IMG/VR virus record: IMGVR_UViG_3300020379_000594
Direction: 5' to 3' (one strand)
Length of the DNA stretch: 64,000 bases
DNA from: an uncultured virus (IMG/VR IMGVR_UViG_3300020379_000594)
Lineage: Duplodnaviria; Heunggongvirae; Uroviricota; Caudoviricetes
Shown here piece by piece: positions 1 to 64,000 of the stretch. Every line of letters starts with the position of its first letter. The first letter of the stretch is position 1. The translations under genes and the position numbers were made by a program. Below the pieces are notes generated by a model that was not told the origin of the DNA, made no database searches, and was given only the letters and a program-made list of their open reading frames with translations.

Positions 1-5
1 CTTAT

Positions 6-3000
6 GTGGCAATCGAAAACCACACGTCAACAGCAAGCGTCAGTGACTTTTACGCCAACGACCTTTCCAAATGGAACGTCCATATTGAAGGTCTAGAACA
101 AAAAGGACAGTGGCAAGCTGGAGTTTACTATCGTATCAACGATCTAGTAAAATTTGGTAACGTTGTCTACAGAGTAACCACTGCTCACACATCAGAAGGA
201 ACTTTCATCGATGCGACGAAAGTATCGGAATATGTAAAAGGATTCCAAAACGAAGGTGAGTGGGATCAGAACAATGAATACCAATCAGGTGACGTTGTAA
301 ACTACAACGGTTCATCTTATGTTGCGTTAACCACATCACTTGCTGGTTTCCAACCTCCACAGTATTTGGGTGTTTCTACAGACCCAGCTGCAAAATGGAG
401 TATCTTATCTGATGGTCTTGCTGGTGCGGCTTCAACTTACCTCGAAGGTACTTACTACAGAGGAGACTTAGTTCAGTATGGTGGTAATATTTACCGTCAT
501 AAACTGGGTATTACAACTAACGTTTCTCCATTACAGGTTGGTTTAGGATCAATCTTCCCCGAAGGATATCAGGGCGGTCAAGTATGGGATTTACTTGTCA
601 AAGGATTTGATTTCAAAGGCGGTTTCTCCACGACCTTTAACTACCATCCAGGCCACGTTGCAAGATACGGTTCAGATTCATACGTTTCTGTTGGTAACTC
701 TCATAAGAATGTTATTCCTATTGCTGGAATCGGAACATTCTGGGAAGTACTTGCATCAGGAGATTCATCCGCTGCTCTTAACACCAAGGGTGACTTACTT
801 ACATACAACTCAGGTAACGTAAGAATCGGTATCGGTTCTACTGGTTACGCACTTGCAGTTCAGTCAAATGGATTACCTGGCTACGAGATTGTAGGTAACC
901 AAACTAGAATTTACTACGTTGACTCCGAAGACGGATTAGACACATATAACGGTCTTGCACCTAACTTGGCGTTCAAGACTATCAAGAAGGCTTGCGAGGC
1001 TGCTCGTCCTAAGACAGATATCACCAATATGGTGTATACCGCTTCCACTGGTGTGGCAACGGTTACTGCGCCTGGTCACGGTCTGTTAAACACTGGTACG
1101 TTCGTTCAGTTACAAGACATCGAGTTTGAGTGTCTATCTGGAGGTAACGTATTTACTGTCTTGGGTATGACCTATAACAAGGCAGTTGGTCTTGCGACTA
1201 TTACTGCTATTGGTCTTGGTGCTGCTCCCGAAGTTGGAATTGGTGCAACAGTTAGAATCAGAAACTTAAGTGTCCAATACCAAGGTTCCGCACAGTTCGC
1301 CCATACATTCCAGAGTGCATTAGCAAATGCTATTCAGTCTGGTGGTGACTATTCTCACACATTTAACAGTTGCGCTCCAAACGGAGTTCAAGTTGTTGGT
1401 GGATCAGCTGTAACACCTACAAGTGCTACATACGATCCTTCAAATGGTAACTTTATAATGACCCTTACTGGTCATAGTTTATCAACTTCCGATAAGGTTA
1501 CTATTGCTGATAACGCATTTACGTTCACCTGTACGATGAACAACAATGGTTCTCAGAAGACATATCCTAGACCTGGCAAAGACCCTGCACAAGGACAACA
1601 GTTAAGTATTACAGGTACAACAACTGATACATTTACTGTAAACGTTGGACCTTCTCCAATCGTCAACCATCAACCATCTGCGGTTTCCTATAACCAAGCA
1701 ACTGGTGACATGGTTTGCACAATCGGTGCTCACGCATTAACAGTTGGTACTTCTGTAAGATTAGAAACAGATGGTATGACATTCCGTTGCTCAATGGACG
1801 GATATACAACTGATCACTCTTATCCTCGTGCTGTTGCTGGAGACGGAAACCCTGACCCTGCATACAATACAGCTCTTAACATTACCGCTGTTACAACCAA
1901 CACAATTACAATTAACGTTGGTACTGCGTCTGATGACCAGACAATCACTGGTAAGTTCCCTGCTGTACATACTCAAGGTACTTATGAATTCCTTGTACAG
2001 GCTGTACCCGACTCTAACTCAATCACTCTTAACGTAGGTGTTTCAACTACTGATTACCTCTATGTTTCTGGTGGTACTGCGTTCGTTGGTCTAACAACTA
2101 CTATCTACCCAGATAAAGTTGCTAAGTCTTACTACGAAGTTCTTGAAGTTCCTGATGTTGACAACTTTAAGGTCAACGTTGGTATCTCAACTATCAACCA
2201 CACATACGTTGAAGGTGGTAAGGTAACAGACCTAACACCTGCTATCTTGAAACTGTCTGCGTCTCAGTTCTATGAACAGTTACCAGTTACAGTTCCTCCT
2301 TTCACTTCGATTGTTGGTAACGCACTTAGAGGTTCTCAGGTTCTACCTAAAGATGGAACATCTGATGACTCTGTGACTCCTAACAACAGAAGTCACATGT
2401 TCAAGATGTCTGATGCAACAACTATTCAGGCAATCTCCATGAAAGGAATGGAAGGATTCTACTATGATCCTAACGCTCCTTTACAGTTAGACAATGCAAA
2501 CTTAAGAACTGGTATCGGTACAACTGCTGCTGGTGTGTTCATCTCCTTGAACCCAGATTCACCTATCGATAACAAGTCACCTTACGTTAAGGACTGTACT
2601 TGTTTCTCTGACCCTGCAACAGAAAGTGGCAGATTCGGTGGTGGTGGTGTTGGTGTATTCATCGATGGTGGTGTACACGACACTGGTGCAAAATCAATGG
2701 TGTTCGATGCGTTCACGCACGTTGCATCTGATGGTGCTGGTTACATTCTTGATAAGGGTGCAATCGCTGAAATCGTTTCCTGTTTCACATACTACGCTAA
2801 GTGGGGTTACTACTCAGGTGGTGGATCAAGAATCAGGGGTGTTGGTGGAAACAACTCTTACGGAGACTACGGTGTTATCTCATCTGGTTTCTCAACTGAT
2901 GAAGTTCCAAGAACTGCACAAGTCTTCGGTGACATGATGGAAGTTCAAGGTACAACTAAGGCTGGAACAGTTTCAGTTGGTGCTACCATGTTCGGACAAA

Positions 3001-4337
3001 CATCTAAGGCAACTGCATGGTTCTTGAACGATCAGATTTCTGCTGATAAGATTTACTTCAAGTATCAGTCTGGTTACGGTAACGCTGGTATCGGTACAAC
3101 TGGATTCGTAGACGGTGAAATCGTCTGGTTCGGTGCTGGTGCAGAACAGAGTTCTGGTATCGGTTCGATCACAGTTGGTGCGGCTGCATCTTCCACAACT
3201 GGACAAAAAGGTACAATTCTAGAAGTTGACCAAACATCTGGAACACTTCTAATCGGTGATGCTATTGGATTCCAAACATCACTATATGGTGCAGATGATA
3301 GATTCTACATCATTAACACAATTACGGGCGTATCCGTCGCATCCACTTTCTTTGAGTGGCAGGCAGGATCGGGTGCTGGACAACAAGTTGTCTACAATAA
3401 TCGTGCAACTCTGACAATCTCTCCTGAGAAATCAAGAGGAACATGGGATACTAGAAACTTAGGTTCTGGTCAAGGATCTGATATTCAAATCAGAACACTG
3501 TTCTCACAGGCAAGACTAACAGGACATGACTTCCTCGCAGTTGGTACTGGTAACAAGACTGAAACTGGATATCCAAACGTCAACTTGGCGAACGTTATCC
3601 AAGGTCAAGAAACTAACGTGTTCGGACCTGGTAAGGTGTTCTTCGTATCTACCGACCAAGGTGGTAACTTCCGAGTTGGAGACTTCTTCTCCGTTGACCA
3701 GTTGACTGGTCGTGCTACATTGGATGCTTCCGCGTTCAACCTTTCTGGTTTGACAGAATTGAGACTTGGTGCGATTGGTGGTCAGGTTGGTGAGGCGATC
3801 AACGAATTCTCCTCTGACGAGACACTCGCTGGTAACTCTAACACTGCATGTCCTACAGAATTTGCGGTTAAGGGATTCTTAACTCGCGGTTCAATGGGTA
3901 TCAAGGCAATGACACCTCCTGTTGGTACAACTGCTCAAAGACCAGGCGGTATCGACGACGAGTTCAACACTGGTGCGTTGAGATTCAACACTACCTTGGG
4001 TGCTCTTGAGTACTACAACGGTACTTCATGGATTCAGCCTGGTGTTAAGACATACAGTACAGTTTCCTCAAGTACATCTGTAACTTCTGGAGTTACATAC
4101 TTTGTTAACACAGGTGGTGGTCAGGTTACATTGACCTTGCCTGCATCACCTAACTTGGGTGACGAAATTACTTTCATGGACGTTGCGAAGACATTTGATT
4201 CTAACGCACTTGTATGTGGAAGAAACGGTAGACCAATTCAAGGTGACAATGCTGACTTGACAGTTTCAACTGAAGGTGCTGCATTTACCCTCGTTTACTC
4301 TGGTTCTACATACGGTTGGAGAATCTTCTCCATCTAA
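6..4337 (+). CDS. Large repeat-rich virion structural / tail-fibre protein, probably 5'-truncated by the window edge
   Basis: 1443 aa, Gly/Thr-rich. About five N-terminal GxWxxxxxYxxxDxVxYxGxxY repeats and internal Y..xTG...H.L..G..V...FxCxM...YPR...DPA...ITVNVG repeats; 'YYVDSEDG..NG.APNLAFKTIKKA' motif. C-terminus 'LTLPASPNLGDEITFMD...LVYSGSTYGW' is typical of T4-like fibre/baseplate modules. The frame is open upstream (TAT GTG). Confidence 0.7.
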   Translation: MAIENHTSTASVSDFYANDLSKWNVHIEGLEQKGQWQAGVYYRINDLVKFGNVVYRVTTAHTSEGTFIDATKVSEYVKGFQNEGEWDQNNEYQSGDVVNYNGSSYVALTTSLAGFQPPQYLGVSTDPAAKWSILSDGLAGAASTYLEGTYYRGDLVQYGGNIYRHKLGITTNVSPLQVGLGSIFPEGYQGGQVWDLLVKGFDFKGGFSTTFNYHPGHVARYGSDSYVSVGNSHKNVIPIAGIGTFWEVLASGDSSAALNTKGDLLTYNSGNVRIGIGSTGYALAVQSNGLPGYEIVGNQTRIYYVDSEDGLDTYNGLAPNLAFKTIKKACEAARPKTDITNMVYTASTGVATVTAPGHGLLNTGTFVQLQDIEFECLSGGNVFTVLGMTYNKAVGLATITAIGLGAAPEVGIGATVRIRNLSVQYQGSAQFAHTFQSALANAIQSGGDYSHTFNSCAPNGVQVVGGSAVTPTSATYDPSNGNFIMTLTGHSLSTSDKVTIADNAFTFTCTMNNNGSQKTYPRPGKDPAQGQQLSITGTTTDTFTVNVGPSPIVNHQPSAVSYNQATGDMVCTIGAHALTVGTSVRLETDGMTFRCSMDGYTTDHSYPRAVAGDGNPDPAYNTALNITAVTTNTITINVGTASDDQTITGKFPAVHTQGTYEFLVQAVPDSNSITLNVGVSTTDYLYVSGGTAFVGLTTTIYPDKVAKSYYEVLEVPDVDNFKVNVGISTINHTYVEGGKVTDLTPAILKLSASQFYEQLPVTVPPFTSIVGNALRGSQVLPKDGTSDDSVTPNNRSHMFKMSDATTIQAISMKGMEGFYYDPNAPLQLDNANLRTGIGTTAAGVFISLNPDSPIDNKSPYVKDCTCFSDPATESGRFGGGGVGVFIDGGVHDTGAKSMVFDAFTHVASDGAGYILDKGAIAEIVSCFTYYAKWGYYSGGGSRIRGVGGNNSYGDYGVISSGFSTDEVPRTAQVFGDMMEVQGTTKAGTVSVGATMFGQTSKATAWFLNDQISADKIYFKYQSGYGNAGIGTTGFVDGEIVWFGAGAEQSSGIGSITVGAAASSTTGQKGTILEVDQTSGTLLIGDAIGFQTSLYGADDRFYIINTITGVSVASTFFEWQAGSGAGQQVVYNNRATLTISPEKSRGTWDTRNLGSGQGSDIQIRTLFSQARLTGHDFLAVGTGNKTETGYPNVNLANVIQGQETNVFGPGKVFFVSTDQGGNFRVGDFFSVDQLTGRATLDASAFNLSGLTELRLGAIGGQVGEAINEFSSDETLAGNSNTACPTEFAVKGFLTRGSMGIKAMTPPVGTTAQRPGGIDDEFNTGALRFNTTLGALEYYNGTSWIQPGVKTYSTVSSSTSVTSGVTYFVNTGGGQVTLTLPASPNLGDEITFMDVAKTFDSNALVCGRNGRPIQGDNADLTVSTEGAAFTLVYSGSTYGWRIFSI

Positions 4338-5174: not shown

Positions 5175-5187
5175 GAATTAAACAGAA

Positions 5188-5982: not shown

Positions 5983-5991
5983 GGGGAAGAA

Positions 5992-6780
5992 ATGGCTACT
6001 TATTCAAGTTATAAAAAAGTTACTAACGAGAGAATTATTGATTCAACGATCGGTAGTTCAAAAGTTCAAGCTGGTTCATTCTCTAACTGGTGTGTAAAAT
6101 GGGTGTATGGTCATCCATGTTATTGCACACCTGGCTGTTGTTGCAACTGGCAAGTTCCAACTGGAGTAACAAGAATCACTTGGGAAATCTGGGGTTCTGG
6201 GGGAAATGGACACGGTGCGTGTTCATGTAACAGATGTCAAAACTGGCATGGTGCTGGTGGTGGATACTACAATACTAAAACTATTAGTACAACTGCTGGA
6301 TGTTCATACACTGTATGTGCTGCTGGTGTTTACCGTTGTTGTTCTAGAGAGTGTACAGGGTGTTGCGGATGTAACTCCTATGTAAATGGATATAACCTCT
6401 CTAACTTCTGTGCCTTAGGTGGTACTAGAGGTTGTGCAACTGGTGACTGGTCTGCAAACTGTTATTCAGAATTCCATACTTGCTGTATGCAACCTGGCGC
6501 TCACGGAGGAGACTTCGGAATGGGTAACCACGGTGGTAACTCATACAGACCTGACGGATTCAACTGTCACTGTTTCTATAATGAAGGATTACCAACAGGT
6601 GCTCCATTCATCGGAACTCTTGGTGTTTCATACGGACAAAGACAGTGTTGGATGCGTTGTGGTTGCTGGACAGTTCCATACGGACACGGTGGTCAAGGTG
6701 CAAACAGTAACTACTGTGGTAGGTGTTGTGGACAAGGCGGACAAGGTGGAGGAGGACTCGTTAAGATCACTTACGTCTAA
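5992..6780 (+). CDS. Cys/Gly-rich protein, paralogue 3
   Basis: 262 aa, 30 Cys; same Cys skeleton. Confidence 0.6.
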   Translation: MATYSSYKKVTNERIIDSTIGSSKVQAGSFSNWCVKWVYGHPCYCTPGCCCNWQVPTGVTRITWEIWGSGGNGHGACSCNRCQNWHGAGGGYYNTKTISTTAGCSYTVCAAGVYRCCSRECTGCCGCNSYVNGYNLSNFCALGGTRGCATGDWSANCYSEFHTCCMQPGAHGGDFGMGNHGGNSYRPDGFNCHCFYNEGLPTGAPFIGTLGVSYGQRQCWMRCGCWTVPYGHGGQGANSNYCGRCCGQGGQGGGGLVKITYV

Positions 6781-6800
6781 ACCGAACAAGAAAATTTTTC

Positions 6801-6828
6801 AAAAGGGGGTCATAGACCCTCTTTTTTT
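6801..6828 (+). terminator. Rho-independent terminator after the Cys-rich triplet
   Basis: AAAAGGGGGTC-ATA-GACCCTCTTTTTTT hairpin plus U-tract. Confidence 0.75.
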
Positions 6829-8393: not shown

Positions 8394-9680
8394 ATGAGAA
8401 CTATGAGATCAAAAGCATTCTTCGTCAATGGTGGGGCAGGGAGAGTAATAAGTTCAATACCAGCATTTGAAAAATATGCAGAAACTCATGATGATTTTGT
8501 CATCATTTGTGAAGGTGGTACTGATTTCTTCAAAGGGCATCCTACATTAGATAGTAGGGTTTACGACCACTGGCATAAAGGAGTATTCCAAGAACACGTT
8601 AAACAAAGGGATTGCGAGAGTCCAGAACCATACAGAGTATGGCACTATTACAATCAGAAGTGCAATCTAGCACAAGCATATGATATGGAAATCAATGGGT
8701 TAGAAGAACCCAGAGAACTTCCTAAACCTACAATTCATCTCAATAAAACAGAGAGTATTGCTGCCTATAATATCGTTGAAGAAATCAAATCTGTTACTAA
8801 AAAAGACAAAGTAATTGTTGTTCAACCTTTTGGTAGATCTGTTGAACAGATGGGAGAGTTTATTGCAGATCCAACTTCCAGAAGTATGGCTCTTACAGGA
8901 GTTGTAGATATCATCAACGCTCTTAAGAAAGACTATGGAGTGATTGTGATGAGTGAGATTCATTTCCCAACCGAGGAAAATGAAGACAAATATCCTATTG
9001 CTAGACCTCAAATTTCAGATATGAGAGTTTGGGCTGGTGTGATTGAGATTGCTGATCACTTCTTAGGATGTGACAGTATGGGTCAACACATTGCAAGAGC
9101 ATTTGATAAGACTGCAACTGTTGTGATTGGTTCAACATACCCAGAGAACATTAGTTATCCAGGCCACAAGGACTTTGATATTATTGATGTGGGAGATGGT
9201 CGTAGAGAGTATGCTCCTATCAGAATTGCAATGGATGAGAGAGTAGATCGTTTCAATGATGAAGCGATGGAACTAAGTAAGAAACAGATTGATGAAATCA
9301 TTGCATCTTGTAAGAAGAGATTAGGTAAACCAAAATCATATACTGGTACTTACGTTCCCCCACAACAGCAGGGACAATCTTGTTCACCTCAACAACAAGC
9401 ACCAACGCAACCACAGATGGGACAAGGAATTGCATCACCAATGCAATCAGGTTTAAATAACTTAATTCCAAATCAGGGACAATCTTGTTCACCTCCAAAT
9501 TGGAATCCTTCTGCAACACAAACAACTAATCCTTTGATGAGTGGTGCTCCTAAACCTACCTTTACTATGGAACCACAAAAACCAAAAAAACCAAAGAATA
9601 AGAAAGGTTTCCAATCTGAAATTAAAAATCTGTTAAAATCCGATAAAGATAACGCAATTACTATAGAAAAGAAAGATTGA
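8394..9680 (+). CDS. GT9-like (ADP-heptose heptosyltransferase-type) glycosyltransferase with a Q/P/K-rich tail
   Basis: GGAGRVISSIP and ADHFLGCDSMGQHIARAFDKTATVVIGST resemble the GT9 'DSG..H.A.A....v.lfG.T' motif; about 110 aa low-complexity C-terminus. Confidence 0.65.
   Translation: MRTMRSKAFFVNGGAGRVISSIPAFEKYAETHDDFVIICEGGTDFFKGHPTLDSRVYDHWHKGVFQEHVKQRDCESPEPYRVWHYYNQKCNLAQAYDMEINGLEEPRELPKPTIHLNKTESIAAYNIVEEIKSVTKKDKVIVVQPFGRSVEQMGEFIADPTSRSMALTGVVDIINALKKDYGVIVMSEIHFPTEENEDKYPIARPQISDMRVWAGVIEIADHFLGCDSMGQHIARAFDKTATVVIGSTYPENISYPGHKDFDIIDVGDGRREYAPIRIAMDERVDRFNDEAMELSKKQIDEIIASCKKRLGKPKSYTGTYVPPQQQGQSCSPQQQAPTQPQMGQGIASPMQSGLNNLIPNQGQSCSPPNWNPSATQTTNPLMSGAPKPTFTMEPQKPKKPKNKKGFQSEIKNLLKSDKDNAITIEKKD
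9369..9495 (+). repeat. 22-bp exact direct repeat encoding QGQSCSP
   Basis: CAGGGACAATCTTGTTCACCTC at 9369-9390 and 9474-9495. Confidence 0.85.
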
Positions 9681-9684
9681 GATT

Positions 9685-11487
9685 ATGACACAATGGATTG
9701 CTGCAATCGCTAGAGGTCACAACTCTGGTGTATGCCTACTGAAAGATGGACAATTAGTTTTCTCTATTGAAGAAGAGAGATTATCAAGAAAGAAATATGA
9801 TGGAGGTCCTTTTGCCTCCATGATTAAGATATTGGATTATACCGATACACTTGATTATCTTGTAGTTGCACACACGCAACCTTTAGATGAAGCTGGGAGA
9901 AATGACTTTACAGGAGAACCTGTCTACGTTGCTCTTGCAAGAAAACTAGGTCTCATTGATCGTAATGCAGATGTTTACAAACATCCTCAAGTTGTAGATT
10001 ACAGTCATATTCACCACAAACTTCACGCTTCTTGTGCTTTCTATAGATCTGGATTTAAGAGTGCAGTATCCGTTATAGTAGACGGTGCAGGGACATTCAT
10101 TCCTATGCAGATTGATGGTGAACAGGAAATGACATGGGAGTTGGAAACTATTATTAATTGTGCCTATCCCGATAAATTCAAAACTCTATACAAACATCAG
10201 GGAGGTAGAGGTCCTTGGGGTGCTGCAAAAATACCTAATTTCCCATCTGAAAGAGAAGATGAAGAAGGCACTCATGAATTGATTATAGATGACTCTGCTG
10301 GAATTGTTAAGGCATACGAAGCAGTAACACAATACTGTGGATGGGCTCCGATTGAAGCTGGAAAAACTATGGGACTATTCCCATATGGTCAACAGAATTT
10401 AAAGATACCAGATATCTACACCGACTATGATGGTATGAGTGATTGGACTACTACCAATAGAGATCTTATTGTACCCACCTATCCTAATGGAGCAATAGTA
10501 AACAAAGGTAGATTTACAGAATTGAGAGAACCTCAAGATCCAAGCACAGTAAAAGATATTACGAAGTTAGATAATCGTAGAGATATGGCTTATGCGATTC
10601 AAGTAGAATCAGAACAGATGGTTCTGGATTTGATTCGTAAGGCAGTTAAGATGAGTGGTGAAAAGAATGTTGTTCTCTCTGGTGGATATGGATTGAACTG
10701 TGTTGCAAACTATTGGTATCTTGAACAATTAAAAGGTGAAGGTATTAATCTATTTGTGGAACCAGTAAGTAATGATGCTGGAACTGCAATCGGTGCTGCA
10801 TACTGGCACTATCATAAAGTGACACAAGATAAGGAGGTAAAACCCATCATTACCGATCTATATTATGGACCTAAGTATGAATACGATACAGAATATATTA
10901 CAGATCTTGCTAACTATTATGATGCAACTAGAATCTTTGAGGCAACGGATGAAGACGTAGTTGATTTGATTATGAAGAAAAATATTGTTGCAATGTTCCA
11001 AGGTAAGTCAGAAGCAGGTCCTCGTGCATTGGGTAATAGATCAATCATGTATGATCCTAGAGATCCAGATGGTAAAGATCATGTCAATACTATCAAACGT
11101 CGTGAATACTTCAGACCTTTTGCTGGTTCTATTCTCAAAGAACATGTTCATGAATGGTTCGATCTTCGTGGTATGGATGAAACTCCATTCATGATGTATG
11201 CAGTTAAATGTCAGGACGGAATCAAAGAAAAGATTCCAGCAATTATTCATGTTGATGATACATGTAGAATACAGACTGTTACCAAAGAAGTAAATCCAAA
11301 TTACTATAATGTAATCAATACCTTCTACGAGAAGACAGGATGCCCTATTATCTTCAACACATCGTTCAACTTAGGCGGAGAACCTCTTGTGGAGACCCTA
11401 GACGACGCTCTAAGGACTCTTGCAAACAGTTTGATAGAATACCTCTATCTGCCTGAATATGGTCTCATGATCGAAGTAAAGAACTGA
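9685..11487 (+). CDS. O-carbamoyltransferase (NodU/CmcH/TobZ family)
   Basis: EEERLSRKK, HHKLHA, DGAG, GKTMGL, SGGYGLNC, DAGTAIGAA, EAGPRALGNRS, KRREYFRPFA, HVDDTCRIQTV, NTSFNLGGEP. Confidence 0.92.
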   Translation: MTQWIAAIARGHNSGVCLLKDGQLVFSIEEERLSRKKYDGGPFASMIKILDYTDTLDYLVVAHTQPLDEAGRNDFTGEPVYVALARKLGLIDRNADVYKHPQVVDYSHIHHKLHASCAFYRSGFKSAVSVIVDGAGTFIPMQIDGEQEMTWELETIINCAYPDKFKTLYKHQGGRGPWGAAKIPNFPSEREDEEGTHELIIDDSAGIVKAYEAVTQYCGWAPIEAGKTMGLFPYGQQNLKIPDIYTDYDGMSDWTTTNRDLIVPTYPNGAIVNKGRFTELREPQDPSTVKDITKLDNRRDMAYAIQVESEQMVLDLIRKAVKMSGEKNVVLSGGYGLNCVANYWYLEQLKGEGINLFVEPVSNDAGTAIGAAYWHYHKVTQDKEVKPIITDLYYGPKYEYDTEYITDLANYYDATRIFEATDEDVVDLIMKKNIVAMFQGKSEAGPRALGNRSIMYDPRDPDGKDHVNTIKRREYFRPFAGSILKEHVHEWFDLRGMDETPFMMYAVKCQDGIKEKIPAIIHVDDTCRIQTVTKEVNPNYYNVINTFYEKTGCPIIFNTSFNLGGEPLVETLDDALRTLANSLIEYLYLPEYGLMIEVKN

Positions 11488-11954
11488 TGAGGGAAATAAA
11501 AGAATACGCATACCCATATCAAGAAGATAACACTGAATTAATGGGGGCGATTCTTAATGTTACTTCTCCTATAGCAGAGAGTTATGCAGAAAGATCTGAG
11601 AATTGTCACATAGCAAAAGGAATCGAAAGTTCACTATCAGTTCAAAGATTTATAAAGTGGATAGAAGAGACAACAGATACTATATTAGAAGACATATGGG
11701 GAGTTTGGTATTATGATGGTGGTGGTATAAAATGGCACTCACATGGGGGAGATTTTAGATACTCATTTGTTTATTACATACAGGTGCCAGAAAATAGTTC
11801 ATCAATAATTTTTGCTGAAGATCCAATGAAAGGTAAACAGACTACAATGTATCCTAACCAAGGTATTTGTATGATATGGGATAACGATCTCCCACATTGC
11901 GTCCCTCCTAGTAATCATAATGGTAGATGCGTATTATCAGGTAACTTAATATGA
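11487..11954 (+). CDS. Putative 2OG-Fe(II) oxygenase (cyanophage HxH type)
   Basis: W...WHSHG...SFVYY...H.VP...R.VLSGN pattern. Confidence 0.6.
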   Translation: MREIKEYAYPYQEDNTELMGAILNVTSPIAESYAERSENCHIAKGIESSLSVQRFIKWIEETTDTILEDIWGVWYYDGGGIKWHSHGGDFRYSFVYYIQVPENSSSIIFAEDPMKGKQTTMYPNQGICMIWDNDLPHCVPPSNHNGRCVLSGNLI

Positions 11955-13438
11955 AAAGAATTAAAAGATTAGTTATTGTTGGCGGCGGAACTGCTGGATG
12001 GATTACTGCATCTTGGTTTGCTCGTAGATGGGCAAATCATTTTGAGGTTGTAATTATTGATAAGTCCGAACCAGAAAGAATTGGTGTGGGGGAAGCAACT
12101 CTTCTTAGTTTCCCAAATGTCATGAAGATGATGGGATACAAACCTACAGATTGGTTGAAAGAAGTAGATGCAACATTTAAGTCTGGTATTCTATTTCCTG
12201 GCTGGGGACATGAAGATGCAGAAATTTGGCATCCATTTTCGTTCACAAGCGTAGGTGAATCAAAAACACCTTTGTATGATATATGGCAGTCATTTCAAGA
12301 AAAATATGATCTGAAAGATATCTCACCAATGTATAATTCTTCTTTGAAGAATAAGATTGAGACCAATTATGTACATGATTCCTATGCCTTTCAAATTGAC
12401 TGTGGAAAGTTAGTACAATTTTTAATGAGACATACTACACCTTATTGCAAATATATCCAATCTGATGTGGTAGATATCTACAGAGATGGCAATGCTGATG
12501 ATATAACAAGGTCAAATATAAAAGAACTGGTGTTAGATGATGGATCAAAAATTACTGGAGATATATTCATAGATTGCACTGGTTGGAAACAACTTCTTAT
12601 TGGTCAACATAATGTCGATCTAAGTGACAGATTGTATATCAATGCAGCTCTTGCTGGTAGAGTAAAGTATGAAGATTATAGAAAAGAACAACATCCATAT
12701 ACTGCTTGCCCTGCACAAGAACATGGTTGGATTTGGAAGATTCCTACAAGATCCAGAATAGGAACAGGATACTGTTTCAATAGAGATATCAATGATCCAG
12801 ATGAAGTAAGACAAGCGTTCTCTGATCATTGGGATGGTAGAATCAAACCAGATGAAATGAGATTACTTGATTGGAAACCACAATATGCCAAGAATTTTTG
12901 GGTTGGTAATGTAATTCCTATTGGATTATCTGCTGGATTCATTGAACCATTGGAAAGTACAGGACTCGCACTGATGATTAGAGGTGTGGAGTATCTCGAA
13001 GAAAGTCTTTTTGGTGGATACTTTGATTCTAAAGTAGAGGCACCTTTCTATGATTCTAAGATGAAATGTAGTTATGAAAGTGCAGTAGATTATGTCAATA
13101 TGCACTATTCTTACTGCCGTAGAACAGGTAAATTCTGGGATTATGTTAGATCTAAATATAAGAAATCATCAATGCAAGAATTGATGGAGGAGTATATTCA
13201 AGATCCCAATATAAGAACTCCTCAAACAGGAAAGGTAGGATCATTCTTTGATGGCACTAACTGGCATGTATGGTTGTTACAGTTGATGACAGATAAGATT
13301 AACTCCAAAGAGTATTGGAAAAAAGACCTAACCGTAGTCCCAAGATTTCTCAATTTTGTAAATAACGATTTGCGTGAGAATCAAGCAAACTCTGTTATTC
13401 AGAGTCAATATATCACACATTTAGATACATTAGAATGA
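11951..13438 (+). CDS. Flavin-dependent (tryptophan-halogenase family) halogenase
   Basis: GGGTAG FAD motif, IGVGEAT, DATFKSGI (catalytic Lys), FIDCTG, WIWKIP, FIEPLESTG. Confidence 0.9.
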   Translation: MKRIKRLVIVGGGTAGWITASWFARRWANHFEVVIIDKSEPERIGVGEATLLSFPNVMKMMGYKPTDWLKEVDATFKSGILFPGWGHEDAEIWHPFSFTSVGESKTPLYDIWQSFQEKYDLKDISPMYNSSLKNKIETNYVHDSYAFQIDCGKLVQFLMRHTTPYCKYIQSDVVDIYRDGNADDITRSNIKELVLDDGSKITGDIFIDCTGWKQLLIGQHNVDLSDRLYINAALAGRVKYEDYRKEQHPYTACPAQEHGWIWKIPTRSRIGTGYCFNRDINDPDEVRQAFSDHWDGRIKPDEMRLLDWKPQYAKNFWVGNVIPIGLSAGFIEPLESTGLALMIRGVEYLEESLFGGYFDSKVEAPFYDSKMKCSYESAVDYVNMHYSYCRRTGKFWDYVRSKYKKSSMQELMEEYIQDPNIRTPQTGKVGSFFDGTNWHVWLLQLMTDKINSKEYWKKDLTVVPRFLNFVNNDLRENQANSVIQSQYITHLDTLE

Positions 13439-13842
13439 ATAAAATAGTATGGTGCAATGGAACCTTCGACATCTTGCATCCAGGCCACATTGAATTATTT
13501 AAAGTCGGCAAATCTTTGGGAGACAAACTTATTGTAGCAACAGATACGGATGAGAAGATACGTCAAGATAAGGGTGAAACTAAGCCCATCAATAACCTTT
13601 GTGACAGAATTTCGATGTTACAAGCGATAAAATATATTGATGAAGTTTTTTACTTCAACGATAGATCAGAATTGGAGGGGTTGATAGAATTATACTCTCC
13701 TGATATACTATTGTTAGGAGATGACTGGAAAGGTGGAGATGTAGTTGGCAGACAATTTGCCAAAGAGATAAGGTATCTACCTCGCCTAAATTATTCAACA
13801 ACCGAAATTATCAGAAAAGTAAGGTGCAACAGTTTAACGTAA
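13435..13842 (+). CDS. Nucleotidylyltransferase (HldE/RfaE domain II-like)
   Basis: NGTFDILHPGH (HxGH), KG..KPIN...R, GDDW, YSTT. Confidence 0.8.
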   Translation: MNKIVWCNGTFDILHPGHIELFKVGKSLGDKLIVATDTDEKIRQDKGETKPINNLCDRISMLQAIKYIDEVFYFNDRSELEGLIELYSPDILLLGDDWKGGDVVGRQFAKEIRYLPRLNYSTTEIIRKVRCNSLT

Positions 13843-14663
13843 TTGTTATAGGTGATAAGTGTACTGACAAGTACATCTATGGTGAATGTAGTAGGTTGAG
13901 TCCAGAACAACCTGTACCTGTGTTGGACAAATCTAAGGTTGAAGAAAAGCCTGGAATGGCAGGGAATACTGAGTTAAATCTCAAAGCATTTGGAATCAAT
14001 ACTGTTCTGCTTTCACAAAGAGAACCTATAACCAAAACAAGATTTGTAGATACTAACAGTGGCTATCAGTTATTGCGTTTAGATGAAACTCCAAAGGTGA
14101 GTAGAATTGCAAATGCAGAATTGAAAATGGCGTTGATGCACATGAACCCTGATGCGATTGTTATATCAGATTATGACAAAGGATACATTAACGATGAAGA
14201 TTTGTGGCATCTATGTCACAATTTTAACAGACCTGTGTTCGTGGATACAAAGAAGCGTAGACTTTTCAACAAAGATAATGTATTCTGGAAAATAAACAAG
14301 AAAGAATACGATGACCTTGTACCAGAAAGTGTACCTGACAGCAGTAACCTTATCGTTACTCTTGGGTCTGATGGCGCAATGTGGAATAATACCATATTTA
14401 AACCCGACCCTGTAAAAGTTTTTGACGTATGTGGTGCTGGAGATACATTTCTATCAGCGTTAGTCTATGAATTTTTAAGAACAAAAAATATGCGGAAGGC
14501 CATTGAACTGGCAAATAAAGCCGCTGCAATTACAGTAACTCACCCTGGCGCTTACTATCTGACTAGGAGTGATATTATCTCACTATATGGAGAAGAAAAT
14601 GGAAAAACTGTCGATAGGCAAAGCGGATCTAATGCACCACAGACTGCAAGCGTGGTTGCGTGA
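13824..14663 (+). CDS. PfkB-family heptose-7-phosphate kinase (HldE/RfaE domain I-like)
   Basis: GD...DKYIYG...RLSPEQPVPV, PGMAGN, ISDYDKG, VFDVCGAGDTF. Confidence 0.85.
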   Translation: MQQFNVIVIGDKCTDKYIYGECSRLSPEQPVPVLDKSKVEEKPGMAGNTELNLKAFGINTVLLSQREPITKTRFVDTNSGYQLLRLDETPKVSRIANAELKMALMHMNPDAIVISDYDKGYINDEDLWHLCHNFNRPVFVDTKKRRLFNKDNVFWKINKKEYDDLVPESVPDSSNLIVTLGSDGAMWNNTIFKPDPVKVFDVCGAGDTFLSALVYEFLRTKNMRKAIELANKAAAITVTHPGAYYLTRSDIISLYGEENGKTVDRQSGSNAPQTASVVA

Positions 14664-14811
14664 ACATAGTTGTCCTGATATTGAATACTTGGGAGAAGAA
14701 GAAGATAAGGATGGAGAGTTGAAACACCTCTATCGTATCGGAGAGCATAAAGTATTTCATGATCAAGTTCATGAATTAGAAATGGAAGTCATAGATGAAG
14801 ACGAAGATTGA
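14599..14811 (+). CDS. Hypothetical protein
   Basis: Short acidic ORF with a GGAGAAG SD before the ATG at 14599; overlaps both neighbours. Confidence 0.5.
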   Translation: MEKLSIGKADLMHHRLQAWLREHSCPDIEYLGEEEDKDGELKHLYRIGEHKVFHDQVHELEMEVIDEDED

Positions 14812-15502
14812 ATATATTTTTAGAGTAGATGGATCTGATATCTTCTACACGCCAGAAACAAATGGTGGTGGAGATTACTTCTTTCCAGAATATCTAAACT
14901 TAGTTCTAGAAAACTATGGCAGAGTTCATCATCTCATGGAATGGTGTAGTGGACCTGGATTTATAGGTTATGGAATGATGGCAGCTAATGTTTGCGATCA
15001 ACTAACTTTGTTGGATAAATTTGAACCAGCAGTAGAGATAGCAAAGAAGACTGCTGAGAATTCATTTATAAAACATGGATTAGATCTTATAGATGTAGAA
15101 ACTGTATATCACAGAAGAGTCTTTCCTCGTACAACAATATATCATTCTGATACTTGTTCGGTGTTATCTGATCACAAAATAGATCTAGTTGTAGGCAATC
15201 CTCCCCATTTTGAGTGTAAAGAAGATGCAATAAAAGCTTTGAGTAAGTTAGGTGGGACACCCCTGTTTGATAATCACCTGTCAGAAATTTTGTTAGATGC
15301 AAATTGGGATGCTCATAGAGATATGTTTAATGAACTATCGACAAGACTCTCAGATAATGGTACAATATGTTTACAACTTCACTCAGGTGGATCTAGTGCT
15401 GATACATTTAGATCAATGGTTGAGGAAGCTGGCTTGAGAATTACTGCAACCTTCAATAGTGTTCAGTATGATGACATTTATTACATGGAGGTCAAGAAAT
15501 GA
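14795..15502 (+). CDS. SAM-dependent methyltransferase (NPP motif, HemK/N-MTase-like)
   Basis: EWCSGPGFIG motif I; DLVVGNPPHF motif IV. Confidence 0.75.
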   Translation: MKTKIEYIFRVDGSDIFYTPETNGGGDYFFPEYLNLVLENYGRVHHLMEWCSGPGFIGYGMMAANVCDQLTLLDKFEPAVEIAKKTAENSFIKHGLDLIDVETVYHRRVFPRTTIYHSDTCSVLSDHKIDLVVGNPPHFECKEDAIKALSKLGGTPLFDNHLSEILLDANWDAHRDMFNELSTRLSDNGTICLQLHSGGSSADTFRSMVEEAGLRITATFNSVQYDDIYYMEVKK

Positions 15503-15834
15503 GGTACTGCTTTGATATTGATAATACTATCTGCACACCCACATTGGGTAGGGATTACTCCAAAGCACAATCATGGCCAGCTCGTATTGCCGTCATAAAT
15601 AAATTATATGATGAGGGTAATCATATCACTTATTTCAGTGCCCGTGGTATGGGTAGATTTGGTGATGATCCAGATGCAAGTGTAAAAGCATCTGCTTTAT
15701 TGTTTGACCTCACAGAACAACAACTTAAGAGTTGGGGATGTAGATATCACTCTCTGATTCTAGGTAAACCACATGCAGATTATTTTATAGATGACAAGGG
15801 GGTGAACGCAAATGAGTTCTTTGGGACCAAGTAG
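15499..15834 (+). CDS. Small HAD-family phosphatase
   Basis: FDIDNTI (DxD), SARG, GKP..DYFIDDK. Confidence 0.8.
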   Translation: MRYCFDIDNTICTPTLGRDYSKAQSWPARIAVINKLYDEGNHITYFSARGMGRFGDDPDASVKASALLFDLTEQQLKSWGCRYHSLILGKPHADYFIDDKGVNANEFFGTK

Positions 15835-16213
15835 AAGACCTCGTAATGCCCGTGCAGCAGAACCAGTAAAATATGTCGCAAAAGGTTGGGGATTTGAAAA
15901 ATGGATCGCCAACTGTGAAAAGTATTGTGGCAAATTATTGTACATTGTAAAAGGAAAACAATGTTCATGGCACTATCATAAATTAAAAGACGAAGTATTT
16001 TTTGTTCAGAGTGGAAAGATAAAAATATATTACGGATGGGATGATGATATCGAGAAAGCAGAAACTATGATCCTCAGAAGAGGTGATAAATTTCATGTAC
16101 CTATTGGACTAAAACATAGAATGTATGCTTTGGAAGATACGGAACTATTTGAGTTCAGTACAGAACATATGGATTCTGATTCACATAGAATTTTAGCTGG
16201 CGATCTTATATGA
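15812..16213 (+). CDS. Cupin, sugar-phosphate isomerase-like
   Basis: KGWGFEKW, SWHYHKLKDEVF (HxH...E), GLKHRM, FEFST. Confidence 0.7.
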   Translation: MSSLGPSRRPRNARAAEPVKYVAKGWGFEKWIANCEKYCGKLLYIVKGKQCSWHYHKLKDEVFFVQSGKIKIYYGWDDDIEKAETMILRRGDKFHVPIGLKHRMYALEDTELFEFSTEHMDSDSHRILAGDLI

Positions 16214-16815
16214 TAGAGAACATTACCGACATGATATATGTTGAAAGAGATGTTCTATCTCAAGATCAGTGTGATGAATTAATAAAATATTTTTGGGACA
16301 ACACACAGTTACATGATGATGGCAAAGTAGAACATTTTATTGATGGTGAATATAAAGGTAAGTTAGTAAACAAGGATCATAAAAATTGTACTCAATTTCA
16401 GTTTGAACCTAACCATAAGTATGCAAACTTGATGACACAAGTTATTCAAGACGCATACATGAACTATAGATGCGAACTACCAGTATTACCAGCATCAGAT
16501 CTTGCAATATTAGATTATACAATCAGAGTGTATCCAAAGGGAGAAGGTATATTTAAAACTCATGTAGATCAACTAGATGGAGGAACTATATCTAGATTAT
16601 TTGCCTGCATCATATATCTAAATGATGTGGATGAGGGAGGAGAAACATTCTTTCCTGATTGGAATATTGGATGTAGATGTGAAAGAGGCAAAATACTTAT
16701 ATTCCCCTGTAACTGGATGTTCCCACACGGATCTAATATTAATATATCTCACGACAAGTATATACTAACTGCTTTTATAAATCTAAACTACGATATGCCC
16801 ATGTACAATGATTGA
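16210..16815 (+). CDS. 2OG-Fe(II) oxygenase (prolyl-4-hydroxylase-like)
   Basis: HVD...YLNDVDEGGETFF...IFP..WMFPH...KYI. Confidence 0.85.
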   Translation: MIENITDMIYVERDVLSQDQCDELIKYFWDNTQLHDDGKVEHFIDGEYKGKLVNKDHKNCTQFQFEPNHKYANLMTQVIQDAYMNYRCELPVLPASDLAILDYTIRVYPKGEGIFKTHVDQLDGGTISRLFACIIYLNDVDEGGETFFPDWNIGCRCERGKILIFPCNWMFPHGSNINISHDKYILTAFINLNYDMPMYND

Positions 16816-17266
16816 TATTGTAGATTATCCTGATTTATCTCTGAACAAAGAACTGAGATCATGGATAGATTTTTTGCCTAATGACACAGATGAATTTACT
16901 AATCTTGCAGTAGAAAAACATACAGGATACAATACATACCCTAAACCTTTTATTAAGTTAAAAGATTGGGTTGTAGAAAAATTAGAATTAGATTCAGATA
17001 AAATAGAATATCAATTATGGGGTGCTGTATATAATTACGGTGATTTTGCTTACGAACATAGACATGGCAAAAGTGAGTATTCATTTGTTTACTATGTTTC
17101 TACTCCGCCAGGCAGTTCTCCTTTAAACTTTGATGGATATATTATTCAACCACATGAAGGAATGTGTGTCATTTTTCAAGATGAACTACATTCTGTGCCA
17201 GAAAATGAATGTGATGGTAGAGTAGTTGTTGCTGGTAATTTAAGATATTCGGATACTGATTTATAA
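16808..17266 (+). CDS. Putative 2OG-Fe(II) oxygenase (HxH type)
   Basis: WGAVY...HRH...SFVYYV...HSVP...RVVVAGN; paralogue of 11487-11954. Confidence 0.65.
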   Translation: MIDIVDYPDLSLNKELRSWIDFLPNDTDEFTNLAVEKHTGYNTYPKPFIKLKDWVVEKLELDSDKIEYQLWGAVYNYGDFAYEHRHGKSEYSFVYYVSTPPGSSPLNFDGYIIQPHEGMCVIFQDELHSVPENECDGRVVVAGNLRYSDTDL

Positions 17267-23665: not shown

Positions 23666-23668
23666 ATC

Positions 23669-51842: not shown

Positions 51843-52087
51843 CCAAAACAACTAAAATTAGAGCACAAGTAAAGTCTAGATTCTATTATATATTCTGGGG
51901 AACTGCAACTGTAGCAGTTGTAGCAGGACAGATCTATGTGGGATCAGGATTTAGAAGAATGGCAGAGACTCTTCAAACAGTTCTTGATGCCCCTCTTATG
52001 ATAGAGATACCAGACATCCTACCTCCAGAACTATTGATTCCAATGCCAGGCCCACGATTCTATCAGGATGAAATGGTTATACAATGA
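51839..52087 (+). CDS. Hypothetical membrane protein
   Basis: FYYIFWGTATVAVVAGQIYVG hydrophobic segment. Confidence 0.55.
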   Translation: MTKTTKIRAQVKSRFYYIFWGTATVAVVAGQIYVGSGFRRMAETLQTVLDAPLMIEIPDILPPELLIPMPGPRFYQDEMVIQ

Positions 52088-53226
52088 TGTTAACTGAGAG
52101 TGAAGCTGCATATGCAGCAGATAAATTCATTGATTACTTTTCTAATACAGGAAGGATCGATGAATATCTTCGTAATGTAAAACTAGACAGAATATCAGAA
52201 CAACCCTCTGATCTATCAGCTTTCTTTGATGGTGGTGGTGGTGCGACTGAGGATGATCTCTTCAGTAAGTTTGATATGCACCCTTCTGATATGAAGATTA
52301 AGATCTACAGTGCTGGAGAGTATGGTGGATTGACCAATGAGTTCTTCAATGAGAGATTGCAGATTACAATGTCTCATGCTTTTGAGAGTTCTATTCCAGG
52401 CAAATCACTCAAGTGGATTGTCAAAGAAGAGAACACAGGAAAGGTTATTGGATTCATAAGGTTCGGTTCTCCTACCATCAATTCCAAACCAAGGAATGAT
52501 TGGTTGGGTGATGTACCAGATTTGGGTCGGTTTAATCGCCATGCAATCATGGGTTTCATCATTGTACCTACTCAACCTTTTGGTTTTAACTACCTCGGTG
52601 GTAAACTCTTAGCGATGTTGTGTTGTTCACATCAAGCAAGAGAAGAACTTAACGCAAAATACAATACAGATATTTGTTTGTTTGAAACTACATCATTGTA
52701 TGGATCTACTAAATCCTCATCACAGTATGATGGACTTAAACCATACATGAGATACAAGGGTCTAACTGTGAGTGACTTTACTCCACTACTGCATGACTCT
52801 ATCTTCCAAGATTTAAACAAATGGTTTACAGCAAGGAATAATAATAAATGTTTAGTGAAGGAAGATGCCTCTAGTAGAAAACTAAAGATCCAGACAAAGA
52901 TGATTTCTGTTATCAAAAAGTCCTTACAGGATAGAGATAAACTAGAATCATTCAACACTGCGATCAAATCTGCCAAGGATCTGACTGAACAGAAACGTTT
53001 CTATATGTCTACCTATGGTTTCAAGAATGCTCGAGAAGTTATCTTGGGAGAGCAAGATACTTTGGTTAAAGCTGAAAACTATGATAGGTTCTCTGTTGAT
53101 CAGATTGTTTCTTGGTGGAGAAAGAAAGCTTCTCGTCGCTACGAAGCGCTCAGAGAAGACGGAAGACTAAGAACCAAGTTGGAAACTTGGAACAAAAACC
53201 CTGACGATATTGATATTATACGATGA
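52084..53226 (+). CDS. DUF4338 / DruA-like protein
   Basis: IPG..L...V.....GKVIG.I..GS......R..W.G; P.QPFG.NYLGGKLLA..C.S; TTSLYG..SSQY. Confidence 0.55.
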   Translation: MMLTESEAAYAADKFIDYFSNTGRIDEYLRNVKLDRISEQPSDLSAFFDGGGGATEDDLFSKFDMHPSDMKIKIYSAGEYGGLTNEFFNERLQITMSHAFESSIPGKSLKWIVKEENTGKVIGFIRFGSPTINSKPRNDWLGDVPDLGRFNRHAIMGFIIVPTQPFGFNYLGGKLLAMLCCSHQAREELNAKYNTDICLFETTSLYGSTKSSSQYDGLKPYMRYKGLTVSDFTPLLHDSIFQDLNKWFTARNNNKCLVKEDASSRKLKIQTKMISVIKKSLQDRDKLESFNTAIKSAKDLTEQKRFYMSTYGFKNAREVILGEQDTLVKAENYDRFSVDQIVSWWRKKASRRYEALREDGRLRTKLETWNKNPDDIDIIR

Positions 53227-63666: not shown

Positions 63667-63682
63667 ATAGTATCAAAAACTC

Positions 63683-64000
63683 ATGGCTAGAACTGCTGAA
63701 GAAGTATTACAACTAAATCAGATCTTACAAGAGATTAATATTCCTGATAGGGATGTTGAAGTAAAAGGTGCAACTTCTAAACAAGTCACTTATGTTGTGA
63801 AATCTGATGACAGAGATAAAACTAAATCAGATGTAGAAGGACTTCTATCAAGACTAGGCAGAGTTTATAACGAACAGAAATCTATTAGTTCCGTTCCTGT
63901 ATCCTGTGTAAGGATGAGTGACGGAACTATTTTGACGTTTATATACAAGCCCAGAAAGGGTGGTATGTCAATGACAACGTTGAACTCTTCCATGACGGAA
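63683..64000 (+). CDS. Hypothetical protein, 3'-truncated
   Basis: ATG at 63683 after TCTAAATA; open to the window end (MARTAEEVLQLNQ...). Confidence 0.55.
   Translation, partial: MARTAEEVLQLNQILQEINIPDRDVEVKGATSKQVTYVVKSDDRDKTKSDVEGLLSRLGRVYNEQKSISSVPVSCVRMSDGTILTFIYKPRKGGMSMTTLNSSMTE

Follow-up and report, generated by a model that had tools for sequence, protein, structure and literature searches.

Flank-dependent retention of CCWGG and other palindromes in a T4-like cyanophage clade, and a possible cytosine mark at G-C-Y and GGWCC

Introduction

In cloning practice, overlapping methylation, by Dam or Dcm for example, blocks restriction sites, and Anabaena cyanophages reportedly show classical counter-selection of AvaI, AvaII, and AvaIII sites. 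Here, a stretch of 64,000 nucleotides from an uncultured virus of the Caudoviricetes (IMG/VR IMGVR_UViG_3300020379_000594), called the window throughout, was analyzed for the bases that surround its CCWGG sites. According to an original prediction made by eye, CCWGG occurs in the window only after a G, before a C, or overlapping GGWCC, and a host nuclease attacks it unless its outer C is modified in a GpC or GGWCC context. On balance, and from sequence evidence, we consider it probable that the phage avoids host restriction and in addition supplies a modification of cytosine at GCY and GGWCC.

Two groups of described phage systems come closest. Phage C5-methyltransferases (C5-MT) paired with TET enzymes recognize mainly GpC[C/T] (Burke et al. 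2021, PMC8256090). Heptose on 5-hydroxymethylcytosine has been reported for such C5-MT/TET clusters, and the authors working on them doubt that GpC-limited marks protect against restriction (PMC8256090; bioRxiv 10.1101/2023.12.21.572611). In surface-ocean viral genomes, SMRT (single-molecule, real-time) sequencing gave 'm4C' signals at RGCY, VGCY, GCT, GGWCC, GGHCC, CCWGG, and CCNGG, variously combined (Hiraoka et al. 2022, PMC8919816). Those 'm4C' motifs came from Myoviridae-like genomes and were seldom common to prokaryotes, and the viral genomes with measured RGCY/GGWCC encode N4-methyltransferase homologues, which are M.AvaVII-/M.Ssp6803II-like and M.Cdi630III-like (PMC8919816).

Results

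CCWGG is retained in the window with a G before its outer C

When window positions 20000-30000 were used as the megablast query, the top match was Synechococcus phage S-SSM7 (NC_015287, 232,878 bp, host Synechococcus WH8109; 87% identity, 99% of the query), and it was followed by less closely related T4-like phages that infect Synechococcus and Prochlorococcus. The window derives from a cyanomyovirus that is T4-like and belongs to the S-SSM7 clade. The window contains tail-fibre genes, a sugar/carbamoyl cluster, the gp13-gp23 structural block, and replication genes as far as mazG; the complete S-SSM7 genome and IMG/VR relatives served as stand-ins for the rest of its genome. For the null model, synonymous codons were shuffled within each of 71 open reading frames (ORFs) of the window, so that the proteins and per-gene codon usage were kept, and 1000 shuffles plus a second set of 300 were run. 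Sites were classed as none, one, or both by the number of strands with a G before the outer C of the site.

The by-eye count of about 59 CCWGG sites agreed with the exact one (n = 59), and 57 sites had a 5' G or a 3' C, as had been claimed for all but two. The flank was on one side only at 49 sites and on both at 8 (22 G-side, 27 C-side, 8 both). The comparison with a codon-preserving shuffle, which the original prediction had proposed as its check, gave a clear result. In the 1000 shuffles, the total was 78.5±5.4 CCWGG sites, with 56.6±5.0 unflanked (minimum 43) and 21.9±3.8 flanked (maximum 34), whereas 2 unflanked and 57 flanked sites were observed. The flanked fraction was 0.97, compared with a null mean of 0.28 and a top value of 0.44. 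The 300-shuffle set concurred (none/one/both 2/49/8 vs 56.9/19.6/2.3; unflanked standard deviation ±5.2). Other W-centred five-base cores of the window had flanked fractions of 0.15-0.37, with no comparable bias. The flank bias is thus real and far beyond chance.

Both unflanked sites overlap GGWCC, as had been noticed by eye; GGACC starts at 3624 and 14951. From the exact count and codon reading, they are as follows.

3624..3631, + strand: exception 1, GGACCTGG, an unflanked CCTGG (CCWGG start 3627) sharing its CC with GGACC (Gly-Pro-Gly)
14951..14958, + strand: exception 2, GGACCTGG, arranged as exception 1 (CCWGG start 14954)

Pro-Gly and Gly-Pro coding makes the targets unavoidable

Since Pro-Gly is encoded by CCN-GGN, it always holds CCGG (Pro codon CCC or CCG) or CCWGG (Pro codon CCA or CCT). 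CCGG was absent from the window (0 vs 39.8±5.4 in 1000 shuffles and 40.0±5.4 in 300) and from the complete S-SSM7 genome (232,878 bp; 0 vs 185). Therefore, Pro-Gly is written as CCW-GGC or placed after a G-ending codon. In-frame Pro-Gly pairs made up 53 of the 59 window CCWGG sites, all 53 with CCA or CCT for Pro, and 42 of these pairs used GGC, a codon that accounts for 155 of 1453 Gly codons (10.7%). In the other 11 pairs, the preceding codon was G-ending in 9 and GGA in 2. All 191 Pro-Gly pairs of S-SSM7 had CCT or CCA, and 127 of them had GGC (9.6% of Gly codons); the remaining 64 followed a G-ending codon in 55 cases and GGA or GGT in 6. The original statement that the rule runs through synonymous choice was thereby borne out, and so was the pattern as a whole; its scope proved wider, as the absence of CCGG and the same rule at other palindromes had been missed.

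Gly-Pro, encoded by GGN-CCN, makes GGNCC unavoidable in the same manner. GGSCC did not occur in S-SSM7 (0 vs 50), where Gly-Pro used GGT or GGA in 128 of 128 pairs. Since neither CCGG nor GGSCC is ever tolerated, CCW-GGN is left for Pro-Gly and GGW-CCN for Gly-Pro.

The 53 of 59 sites that are coding-strand in-frame Pro-Gly would also be expected from a translational codon-pair preference for CCW-GGC, or from a mutational bias, unrelated to restriction. However, the rule is strand-symmetric, and where GGC is not used the previous codon supplies the G (9 of 11 pairs in the window, 55 of 64 in S-SSM7). It also holds in minus-strand genes, at two window CCWGG sites outside the ORF set, and at motifs other than Pro-Gly. 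Moreover, CCWGG in the other two reading frames, where it is synonymously removable, was removed instead of re-flanked (4 and 0 of 59 sites in frames 2 and 3). Such a preference or bias is therefore an extremely improbable cause of the rule.

The same flank rule holds at other palindromes

A flank-dependence scan of all short palindromes in S-SSM7 ranked CCWGG first, and CTGCAG and CCATGG had the same G preference. The S-SSM7 counts (none/one/both, observed vs null) were as follows.

CCWGG: 10/185/11 vs 197/68/5
CTGCAG: 0/18/9 vs 47.7/32.8/7.3
CYCGRG: 0/6/2 vs 29.3/12.4/0.8
CCTNAGG: 0/15/3 vs 28.6/9.4/1.5
CCATGG: 3/16/2 vs 24.4/10.5/1.4
CCTAGG: 3/10/0 vs 10.3/3.5/0.1

All C-N4-G words of S-SSM7 pooled together were unbiased (6396/2715/426 vs 6273/2860/428). 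The window repeated the multi-motif pattern on smaller counts. Its sites, compared with the codon-preserving null in the first three lines, are listed here with no strand assigned.

25927 (25927..25932), 26434, 30595, 30661, 48864, 63398: CTGCAG, six sites, all after G and one also before C; null 12.2 unflanked
6413 (6413..6419), 30858, 56871: CCTNAGG, three sites, all G- or C-flanked; null 6.5 unflanked
53030: CTCGAG, the sole CYCGRG site of the window, G-flanked; null 7.1 unflanked
18189..18197: unflanked CCATGG followed by ACC, overlapping GGACC, an instance of GGWCC rescue at a different motif
38485..38493: unflanked CCTAGG after GGT, overlapping GGTCC, likewise a GGWCC rescue

One flank suffices, as both flanks were present at only 8 of 59 CCWGG sites in the window and 11 of 206 in S-SSM7. 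Other palindromes were missing altogether. The window had no CCGG, CAATTG, TTCGAA, ATGCAT, GGTACC, TACGTA, GTGCAC, GACGTC, GTCGAC, CACGTG, or TGCGCA (0 vs 23.6 for CAATTG, 20.4 for ATGCAT, and 17.2 for TTCGAA), and in S-SSM7 14 six-base palindromes with null counts of 6-94 were wholly missing.

The rescue context is G-C-Y or GGWCC

In S-SSM7, every unflanked exception overlapped GGWCC through the shared CC (CCWGG 10/10, CCATGG 3/3, CCTAGG 3/3; 16 in total), and the same was true in the window (2/2, 1/1, and 1/1). Among 76 other cyanophage loci, merely 35 of 682 unflanked CCWGG sites overlapped GGWCC. The G was required at both -3 and -2, since sites in AGW or TGW context kept the 3' C in 11 of 11 cases and those in GGW context did without it in 10 of 19.

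Every rescued motif starts with CC or CT. In S-SSM7, palindromes starting with CA or CG were never rescued by G: CAATTG did not occur, compared with 36 flanked sites in the null (30 + 5.8), and neither did CACGTG or CGTACG. Palindromes with an internal GCA or GCG were fully purged as well (ATGCAT 0 vs 56, GTGCAC 0 vs 23, TGCGCA 0 vs 13). Nine palindromes of six bases have an intrinsic GCY, no embedded CCGG or GGSCC, and a null of at least 6.9, and all nine persisted in S-SSM7 at 22-74% of the null. GCGC was found there mainly as RGCGCY (R on both flanks 33 vs 37, on one 16 vs 70, on none 0 vs 23), a comparison confounded by overlap with CGCG and TGCGCA avoidance. The bases beyond -1 were under no constraint; therefore, the relevant base is the outer C of the site itself and not the flank C of the opposite strand.

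Uniform GpC methylation was ruled out, since GCCGG, GGGCC, ATGCAT, TGCGCA, and G-flanked CAATTG were still fully purged. Of the context proposed originally, GGWCC therefore stood, GpC was narrowed to G-C-Y, and plain GpC fell on these same five words.

GGWCC itself, with 150 sites in S-SSM7, was not avoided overall; it was A-flanked on both strands at 46 sites vs 25, and TGGWCCA occurred 7 times vs 24.

The flank rule could instead reflect the intrinsic specificity of a host nuclease, one that cuts HCCWGGD and not GCCWGG for example, with no modification at all. Outer-base discrimination is common among enzymes that read CCGG or CCNGG cores, a single non-permissive half-site would stop a homodimer and so fits the sufficiency of one flank, and a modification gene was not found. 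However, this would place six unrelated recognition sequences under one flank rule. Furthermore, the 16 of 16 S-SSM7 exceptions need GG at -3/-2 and W at -1, which is the full GGWCC, and it is implausible that several nucleases read that independently. The rescue also hinges on the second base being Y, a property of a G-C-Y reader and not of each nuclease. Intrinsic specificity thus appears decidedly unlikely.

The rule is restricted to the S-SSM7 clade

The 42 loci from close relatives, 437 kb in total, had no CCGG, and their CCWGG sites were distributed as 8/386/60 (n = 454), 7 of the 8 unflanked sites lying in GGWCC. The 76 other cyanophage portal loci lacked the rule (682/140/2, n = 824), and it was also missing from 55 loci that carry distant homologues (≤43% identity) of P0001, a methyltransferase-fold gene of the window described below. 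The rule is restricted to the S-SSM7 clade.

Several loci showed other arrangements of these words. L027 (13,564 bp) had no CCGG and 18 CCWGG sites, 17 of them unflanked. The opposite solution was seen in L075 (18,097 bp), with no CCWGG, 29 CCGG sites, and 22 Pro-Gly pairs. Marine viral contigs without CCGG and CCWGG, or without any CCNGG, were nearly free of Pro-Gly (L314, 20,645 bp, 0 vs 15; L312, 0 vs 13.4; L302, 1 vs 8.9). In these three, protein sequence has apparently been reshaped by restriction avoidance. The Pro-Gly/Gly-Pro constraint accounts for the complete removal of Pro-Gly from the proteins of some marine phages, and it also makes escape from CCNGG and GGNCC systems particularly difficult for phages. 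Two lineages outside the S-SSM7 clade that bear a Mom-family gene, L283/L284 and L319-L323, had CCWGG flanked at 18/18 and 23/26 sites, with CCGG still present. L277 (7,230 bp) was a mosaic, with 6 unflanked CCWGG and 2 CCGG sites in positions 1-3600 and solely flanked CCWGG in its S-SSM7-like Mom region (5273-5890), which suggests recombination or a chimeric assembly.

Of the 76 portal loci from other cyanophages, 25 lacked CCGG. Such common absence among T4-like cyanophages would be expected if the phage avoids the targets of its own host-DNA-degrading nucleases, whose specificities the flanks would then reflect. S-SSM7 encodes HNH, GIY-YIG SegE-like, SNase, PD-(D/E)XK, and TnsA-like nucleases, and in a GC-rich host, CCGG sites would be abundant. 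However, many of the purged words are AT-rich six-base palindromes, poor choices against a GC-rich genome, and the purged words match classical restriction specificities. The shared G-C-Y and GGWCC rescue is explained no better by the phage's own nucleases than by the intrinsic specificity of host ones. Avoidance of self-encoded nucleases is accordingly a very unlikely account.

Host restriction-modification is patchy

On the host side, 401 sampled genomes of the picocyanobacterial family were searched. A C5-methyltransferase was found in 44 of them (11%) and an N4/N6 methyltransferase in 67 (17%). At the 12 C5-methyltransferase loci inspected, the neighbours included Vsr as well as SinI-type (GGWCC), EcoO109I-like, BglI-like, and IceA-like nucleases; a nuclease for CCWGG or CCGG was not recognized at those 12 loci. 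EcoRII-C was found in 0 of 401 genomes, a result that is uninformative because control genomes were equally silent. In picocyanobacterial genome G071 (L335), a SinI-family endonuclease gene (PF09570, E 3e-40) adjoins a C5-methyltransferase; a Vsr gene does so in L325 and L326.

The marks could be real and yet laid by host methyltransferases in the previous infection. Orphan cytosine methyltransferases are plentiful in cyanobacteria, the frequencies given above show that host-family genomes do carry such enzymes, and the phage has no recognizable DNA methyltransferase. Against this, enzymes present in merely 11% and 17% of genomes would make carry-over unreliable, whereas the purge was near-absolute across 437 kb, and the rule stays within one clade, even though its hosts are shared by other cyanophages. 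Moreover, the viral motifs measured in marine genomes were seldom common to prokaryotic genomes (PMC8919816). The patchy host restriction-modification fits a variable restriction landscape and argues against reliable host-derived protection, so that we regard host-laid marks as unlikely, while giving them some weight.

A proposed mechanism, and what weighs against it

A mark on the DNA is preferred here over nuclease quirks because six unrelated recognition sequences share the rescue and the GGWCC palindrome gives it too. Our inference is that a base modification is at work, placed on the outer C and supplied by the phage. The main anti-restriction strategy would be the deletion of restriction targets from the phage's own genome. 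Pro-Gly and Gly-Pro coding makes CCNGG and GGNCC targets undeletable, and the phage picks CCW-GGN and GGW-CCN. A post-replicative mark would then be placed on virion-DNA cytosines in G-C-Y and GGWCC. Sites of CCWGG and of at least five other C-initial palindromes are kept only where, on one strand or both, the outermost C has a G before it and a C or T after it or, alternatively, where that C coincides with the first of the two cytosines of GGWCC. A mark on one strand would block the nucleases of CCWGG, CTGCAG, CYCGRG, CCTNAGG, CCATGG, and CCTAGG, and not those of CCGG, GGSCC, and CAATTG. That one flank is enough is as predicted for the protection of hemi-modified sites.

As to the enzyme, a more tentative suggestion is that the cytosine mark may be made outside the known DNA methyltransferase families, with codons co-evolved to place unavoidable targets under the mark. 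Among the candidates, an acyl-type transferase of the Mom family could have been retargeted from N6 of adenine to N4 of cytosine, or one of the many uncharacterised oxygenase, carbamoyl, or sugar enzymes could be responsible; a Mom acting on cytosine is a speculative candidate.

A number of observations weigh against the cytosine mark. The GCC context fails for CCGG, of which no flanked site was seen against a null of about 56 (51 + 4.8), and GGGCC/GGSCC was likewise purged. Since CCGG and GGGCC are not rescued, the model must assume that their nucleases ignore the mark. AGCT was depleted to 35-40% of the null despite its intrinsic GCY (window 70 vs 199.7; S-SSM7 290 vs 731), without a flank rule and without ever being eliminated. 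GpC was low (rho 0.76 vs 0.92±0.07) with the deficit in GCA and GCT, not in GCC, and the deamination signature expected of 5-methylcytosine (5mC) was non-specific. The motifs measured in marine viruses have R or V at -2 (PMC8919816), whereas the footprint here has no requirement at -2.

The gene searches belong to the same side of the balance. In six-frame searches, PF00145 (C5-methyltransferase) had no match in S-SSM7, G001, G002, G003, and G004, and PF01555 (N4/N6 methyltransferase) had none at E ≤ 0.01 in S-SSM7, G002, G003, G004, and G005, G002 being a 99%-complete relative of 230.7 kb. In this the S-SSM7 clade, without a PF01555 match, is unlike the genomes of Hiraoka et al., which carry N4-methyltransferase homologues (PMC8919816). 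From the set of 296 S-SSM7 ORFs, the 162 of 120-1000 aa and the 7 above 1000 aa (1008-3007 aa) were scanned with Pfam, those below 120 aa being left out; among four ORFs lying across locus boundaries, gp114 was scanned over 349 of its 493 aa, and a 262-aa hypothetical protein, the terminase, and a peptidase were unscanned. No DNA methyltransferase or TET_JBP was listed in the scans of 162 plus 8 S-SSM7 ORFs. PHROGs gave no methyltransferase for the 34 S-SSM7 ORFs without a Pfam match, and the C5 motifs PCQ and ENV were never combined within one S-SSM7 ORF.

Among 40 window ORFs searched with Pfam, there was no match to PF00145, PF01555, or TET_JBP, in line with the initial statement that no C5-methyltransferase is visible in the window. 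The C5-methyltransferase and TET genes predicted to lie elsewhere were not found in the complete S-SSM7 genome and the 99%-complete relative, nor in the window. The central idea of the original prediction thus gained support in one part, a context-specific cytosine mark, from five more palindromes and from exceptions lying in GGWCC, and failed in the other, the predicted genes. An identical bias in phages without any gene for cytosine modification had been named there as a refuting observation, and taken literally this is what was found; because six motifs give the same footprint, we read it as pointing to an enzyme that awaits recognition and not as a refutation. The dioxygenase domains listed for S-SSM7 and the window were 2OG-FeII_Oxy_3, 2OG-FeII_Oxy_5, and DUF6445, and a divergent TET-type dioxygenase may be present among roughly 20 2-oxoglutarate (2OG) enzymes.

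Candidate genes and neighbouring features

Three features of the window bear on the search for an enzyme.

14795..15502, + strand: P0001, a small S-adenosylmethionine (SAM) methyltransferase with motifs CSGPGFIG and GNPPH, the only gene of methyltransferase fold in the window
8394..18731, no strand assigned: sugar/carbamoyl cluster with a carbamoyltransferase, 2OG-Fe(II) oxygenases, a tryptophan-halogenase-like enzyme, a kinase, nucleotidyltransferase, and isomerase of heptose type, a cupin, an epimerase, and P0001, from Pfam and the S-SSM7 annotation
52084..53226, + strand: P0002, 380 aa, with a DruA-like stretch, between the clamp-loader genes gp44 and gp62; S-SSM7 orthologue PF14236, E 1.4e-11

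P0001 was rejected as a DNA modifier. Its AlphaFold model (pLDDT 88.8) had as nearest fold the carbamoyl N-methyltransferase Asc-Orf2 (PDB 9l4q, E 1e-22, TM 0.79/0.87, 29% identity); the next matches were small-molecule, protein, and RNA methyltransferases, with no DNA methyltransferase among the 45 matches listed. P0001 holds NPPH, the only amino-methyltransferase motif found, and gave a weak MTS match. Its neighbours are carbamoyltransferase and heptose genes, and its homologues of ≤43% identity lie in 55 rule-free loci, although the selection on those phages may differ. Homologues of at least 66% identity were in rule-positive loci in 25 of 25 cases, a comparison confounded by shared ancestry. 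P0001 probably belongs to the adjoining sugar/carbamoyl pathway. From its gene content, the cluster at 8394-18731 resembles a route to an N-methyl-carbamoylated heptose, whose acceptor could be the cell surface, the virion, or DNA.

Two further possibilities were discarded. No methyltransferase domain was found inside the giant virion proteins (7 ORFs, 1008-3007 aa). In the cluster after mazG (S-SSM7 159.6-164.8 kb), 4 of 5 ORFs matched no PDB sequence significantly (best E 0.63), and PHROGs gave no methyltransferase in 5 of 5.

Judged by sequence matches, Mom is the only assured DNA-modification family in the clade. The Mom-family protein SSSM7_282 is encoded outside the window (S-SSM7 L016:26772-27392; PF25680 E 2.5e-32, PHROG E 1.4e-60), and relatives within the S-SSM7 clade also have homologues. 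It could protect the sites through adenine modification, as Mu Mom does. The family match is strong, homologues of at least 87% identity lie in rule-positive DNA at 21 of 22 loci (the exception being the mosaic L277), and the Mom-bearing L283/L284 (18/18) and L319-L323 (23/26) also keep CCWGG mostly flanked. Furthermore, the never-tolerated CCGG and GGSCC have no adenine, whereas GGWCC and CCWGG do.

The geometry, however, does not suit an adenine mark. The rescuing G:C pair lies at varying distance from the nearest adenine (+2 in CTGCAG, +3 in CCAGG/CCTAGG, +4 in CCATGG, -3 for the A on the other strand), GCCGCGGC survives without any adenine, and the rule is symmetric with regard to the strand of the A (22 G-side, 27 C-side, 8 both). 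GACGTC was fully purged in S-SSM7 (0 vs 19) although it fits the Mu consensus, which is said to be S-A-S-N-Y. Sites of the CCAGGT type were not rescued, the window having 0 ACCAGGT, CCCAGGT, and TCCAGGT, and at least 15 Mom-bearing loci had no CCWGG at all. Mom as an adenine modifier was therefore ruled out on geometry, and protection by this route is highly improbable.

Other features stand apart from the flank rule. In the S-SSM7 orthologue of P0002, the match to the Druantia DruA family spans about 100 residues, so that a defence-type domain lies inside a phage replication module. Four tandem paralogous ORFs of 261-264 aa occupy window positions 4389-7653 (+ strand) downstream of a 1443-aa tail-fibre gene; one of them matches a glycine-rich domain and one a tail-assembly chaperone. 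The product of S-SSM7 psbA (L016:25141-26322) was closest, within the genome collection, to Prochlorococcus sequences (85-92% identity), and the phage was isolated on Synechococcus.

Discussion

If the more tentative suggestion about the enzyme and the co-evolved codons is true, conditional site avoidance would be a general, sequence-only readout of phage modification motifs. Protective motifs could be inferred from the retained targets and their flanks without chemistry, which would be applicable to thousands of uncultured viral genomes. It also appears that a GpC-limited mark can protect, in that the phage makes a narrow mark sufficient by reshaping the remaining sites. S-SSM7, which is cultured and would be expected to carry GCY/GGWCC marks without a known methyltransferase, makes a sharply defined starting point for finding a new DNA-modifying enzyme. 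No publication on conditional avoidance in cyanophages was found, the cyanophage papers with CCWGG being judged by titles and the beginnings of abstracts.

Compared with hypermodification by C5-MT, TET, and glycosyltransferase, the putative G-C-Y context equals the GpC[C/T] reported in PMC8256090. S-SSM7 is also rich in 2OG-Fe(II) oxygenases, glycosyltransferases, and genes of a heptose-nucleotide pathway; however, its clade has no C5-methyltransferase gene and no TET_JBP match. The marine myovirus genomes of Hiraoka et al. share GCY-type and GGWCC contexts, the kind of virus, and the surface ocean with the S-SSM7 clade. Several of them modify CCWGG directly, which the S-SSM7 clade apparently cannot do (PMC8919816).

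As in phage restriction-site avoidance generally, palindromes were depleted strongly to totally against a codon-preserving null, and the purged words are typical restriction specificities. Unlike plain avoidance, it is conditional here: a subset of the targets is kept in two flank contexts, and Pro-Gly and Gly-Pro decide which targets are undeletable. As in Dam/Dcm overlap blocking, a neighbouring or overlapping methylation motif would mark a base of the site, and hemi-modification would be enough. Unlike Dam/Dcm overlap, the arrangement is selected genome-wide and written into synonymous codons. Avoidance of restriction sites and protection through an overlapping modification, both known already, are thus combined here in a new form.

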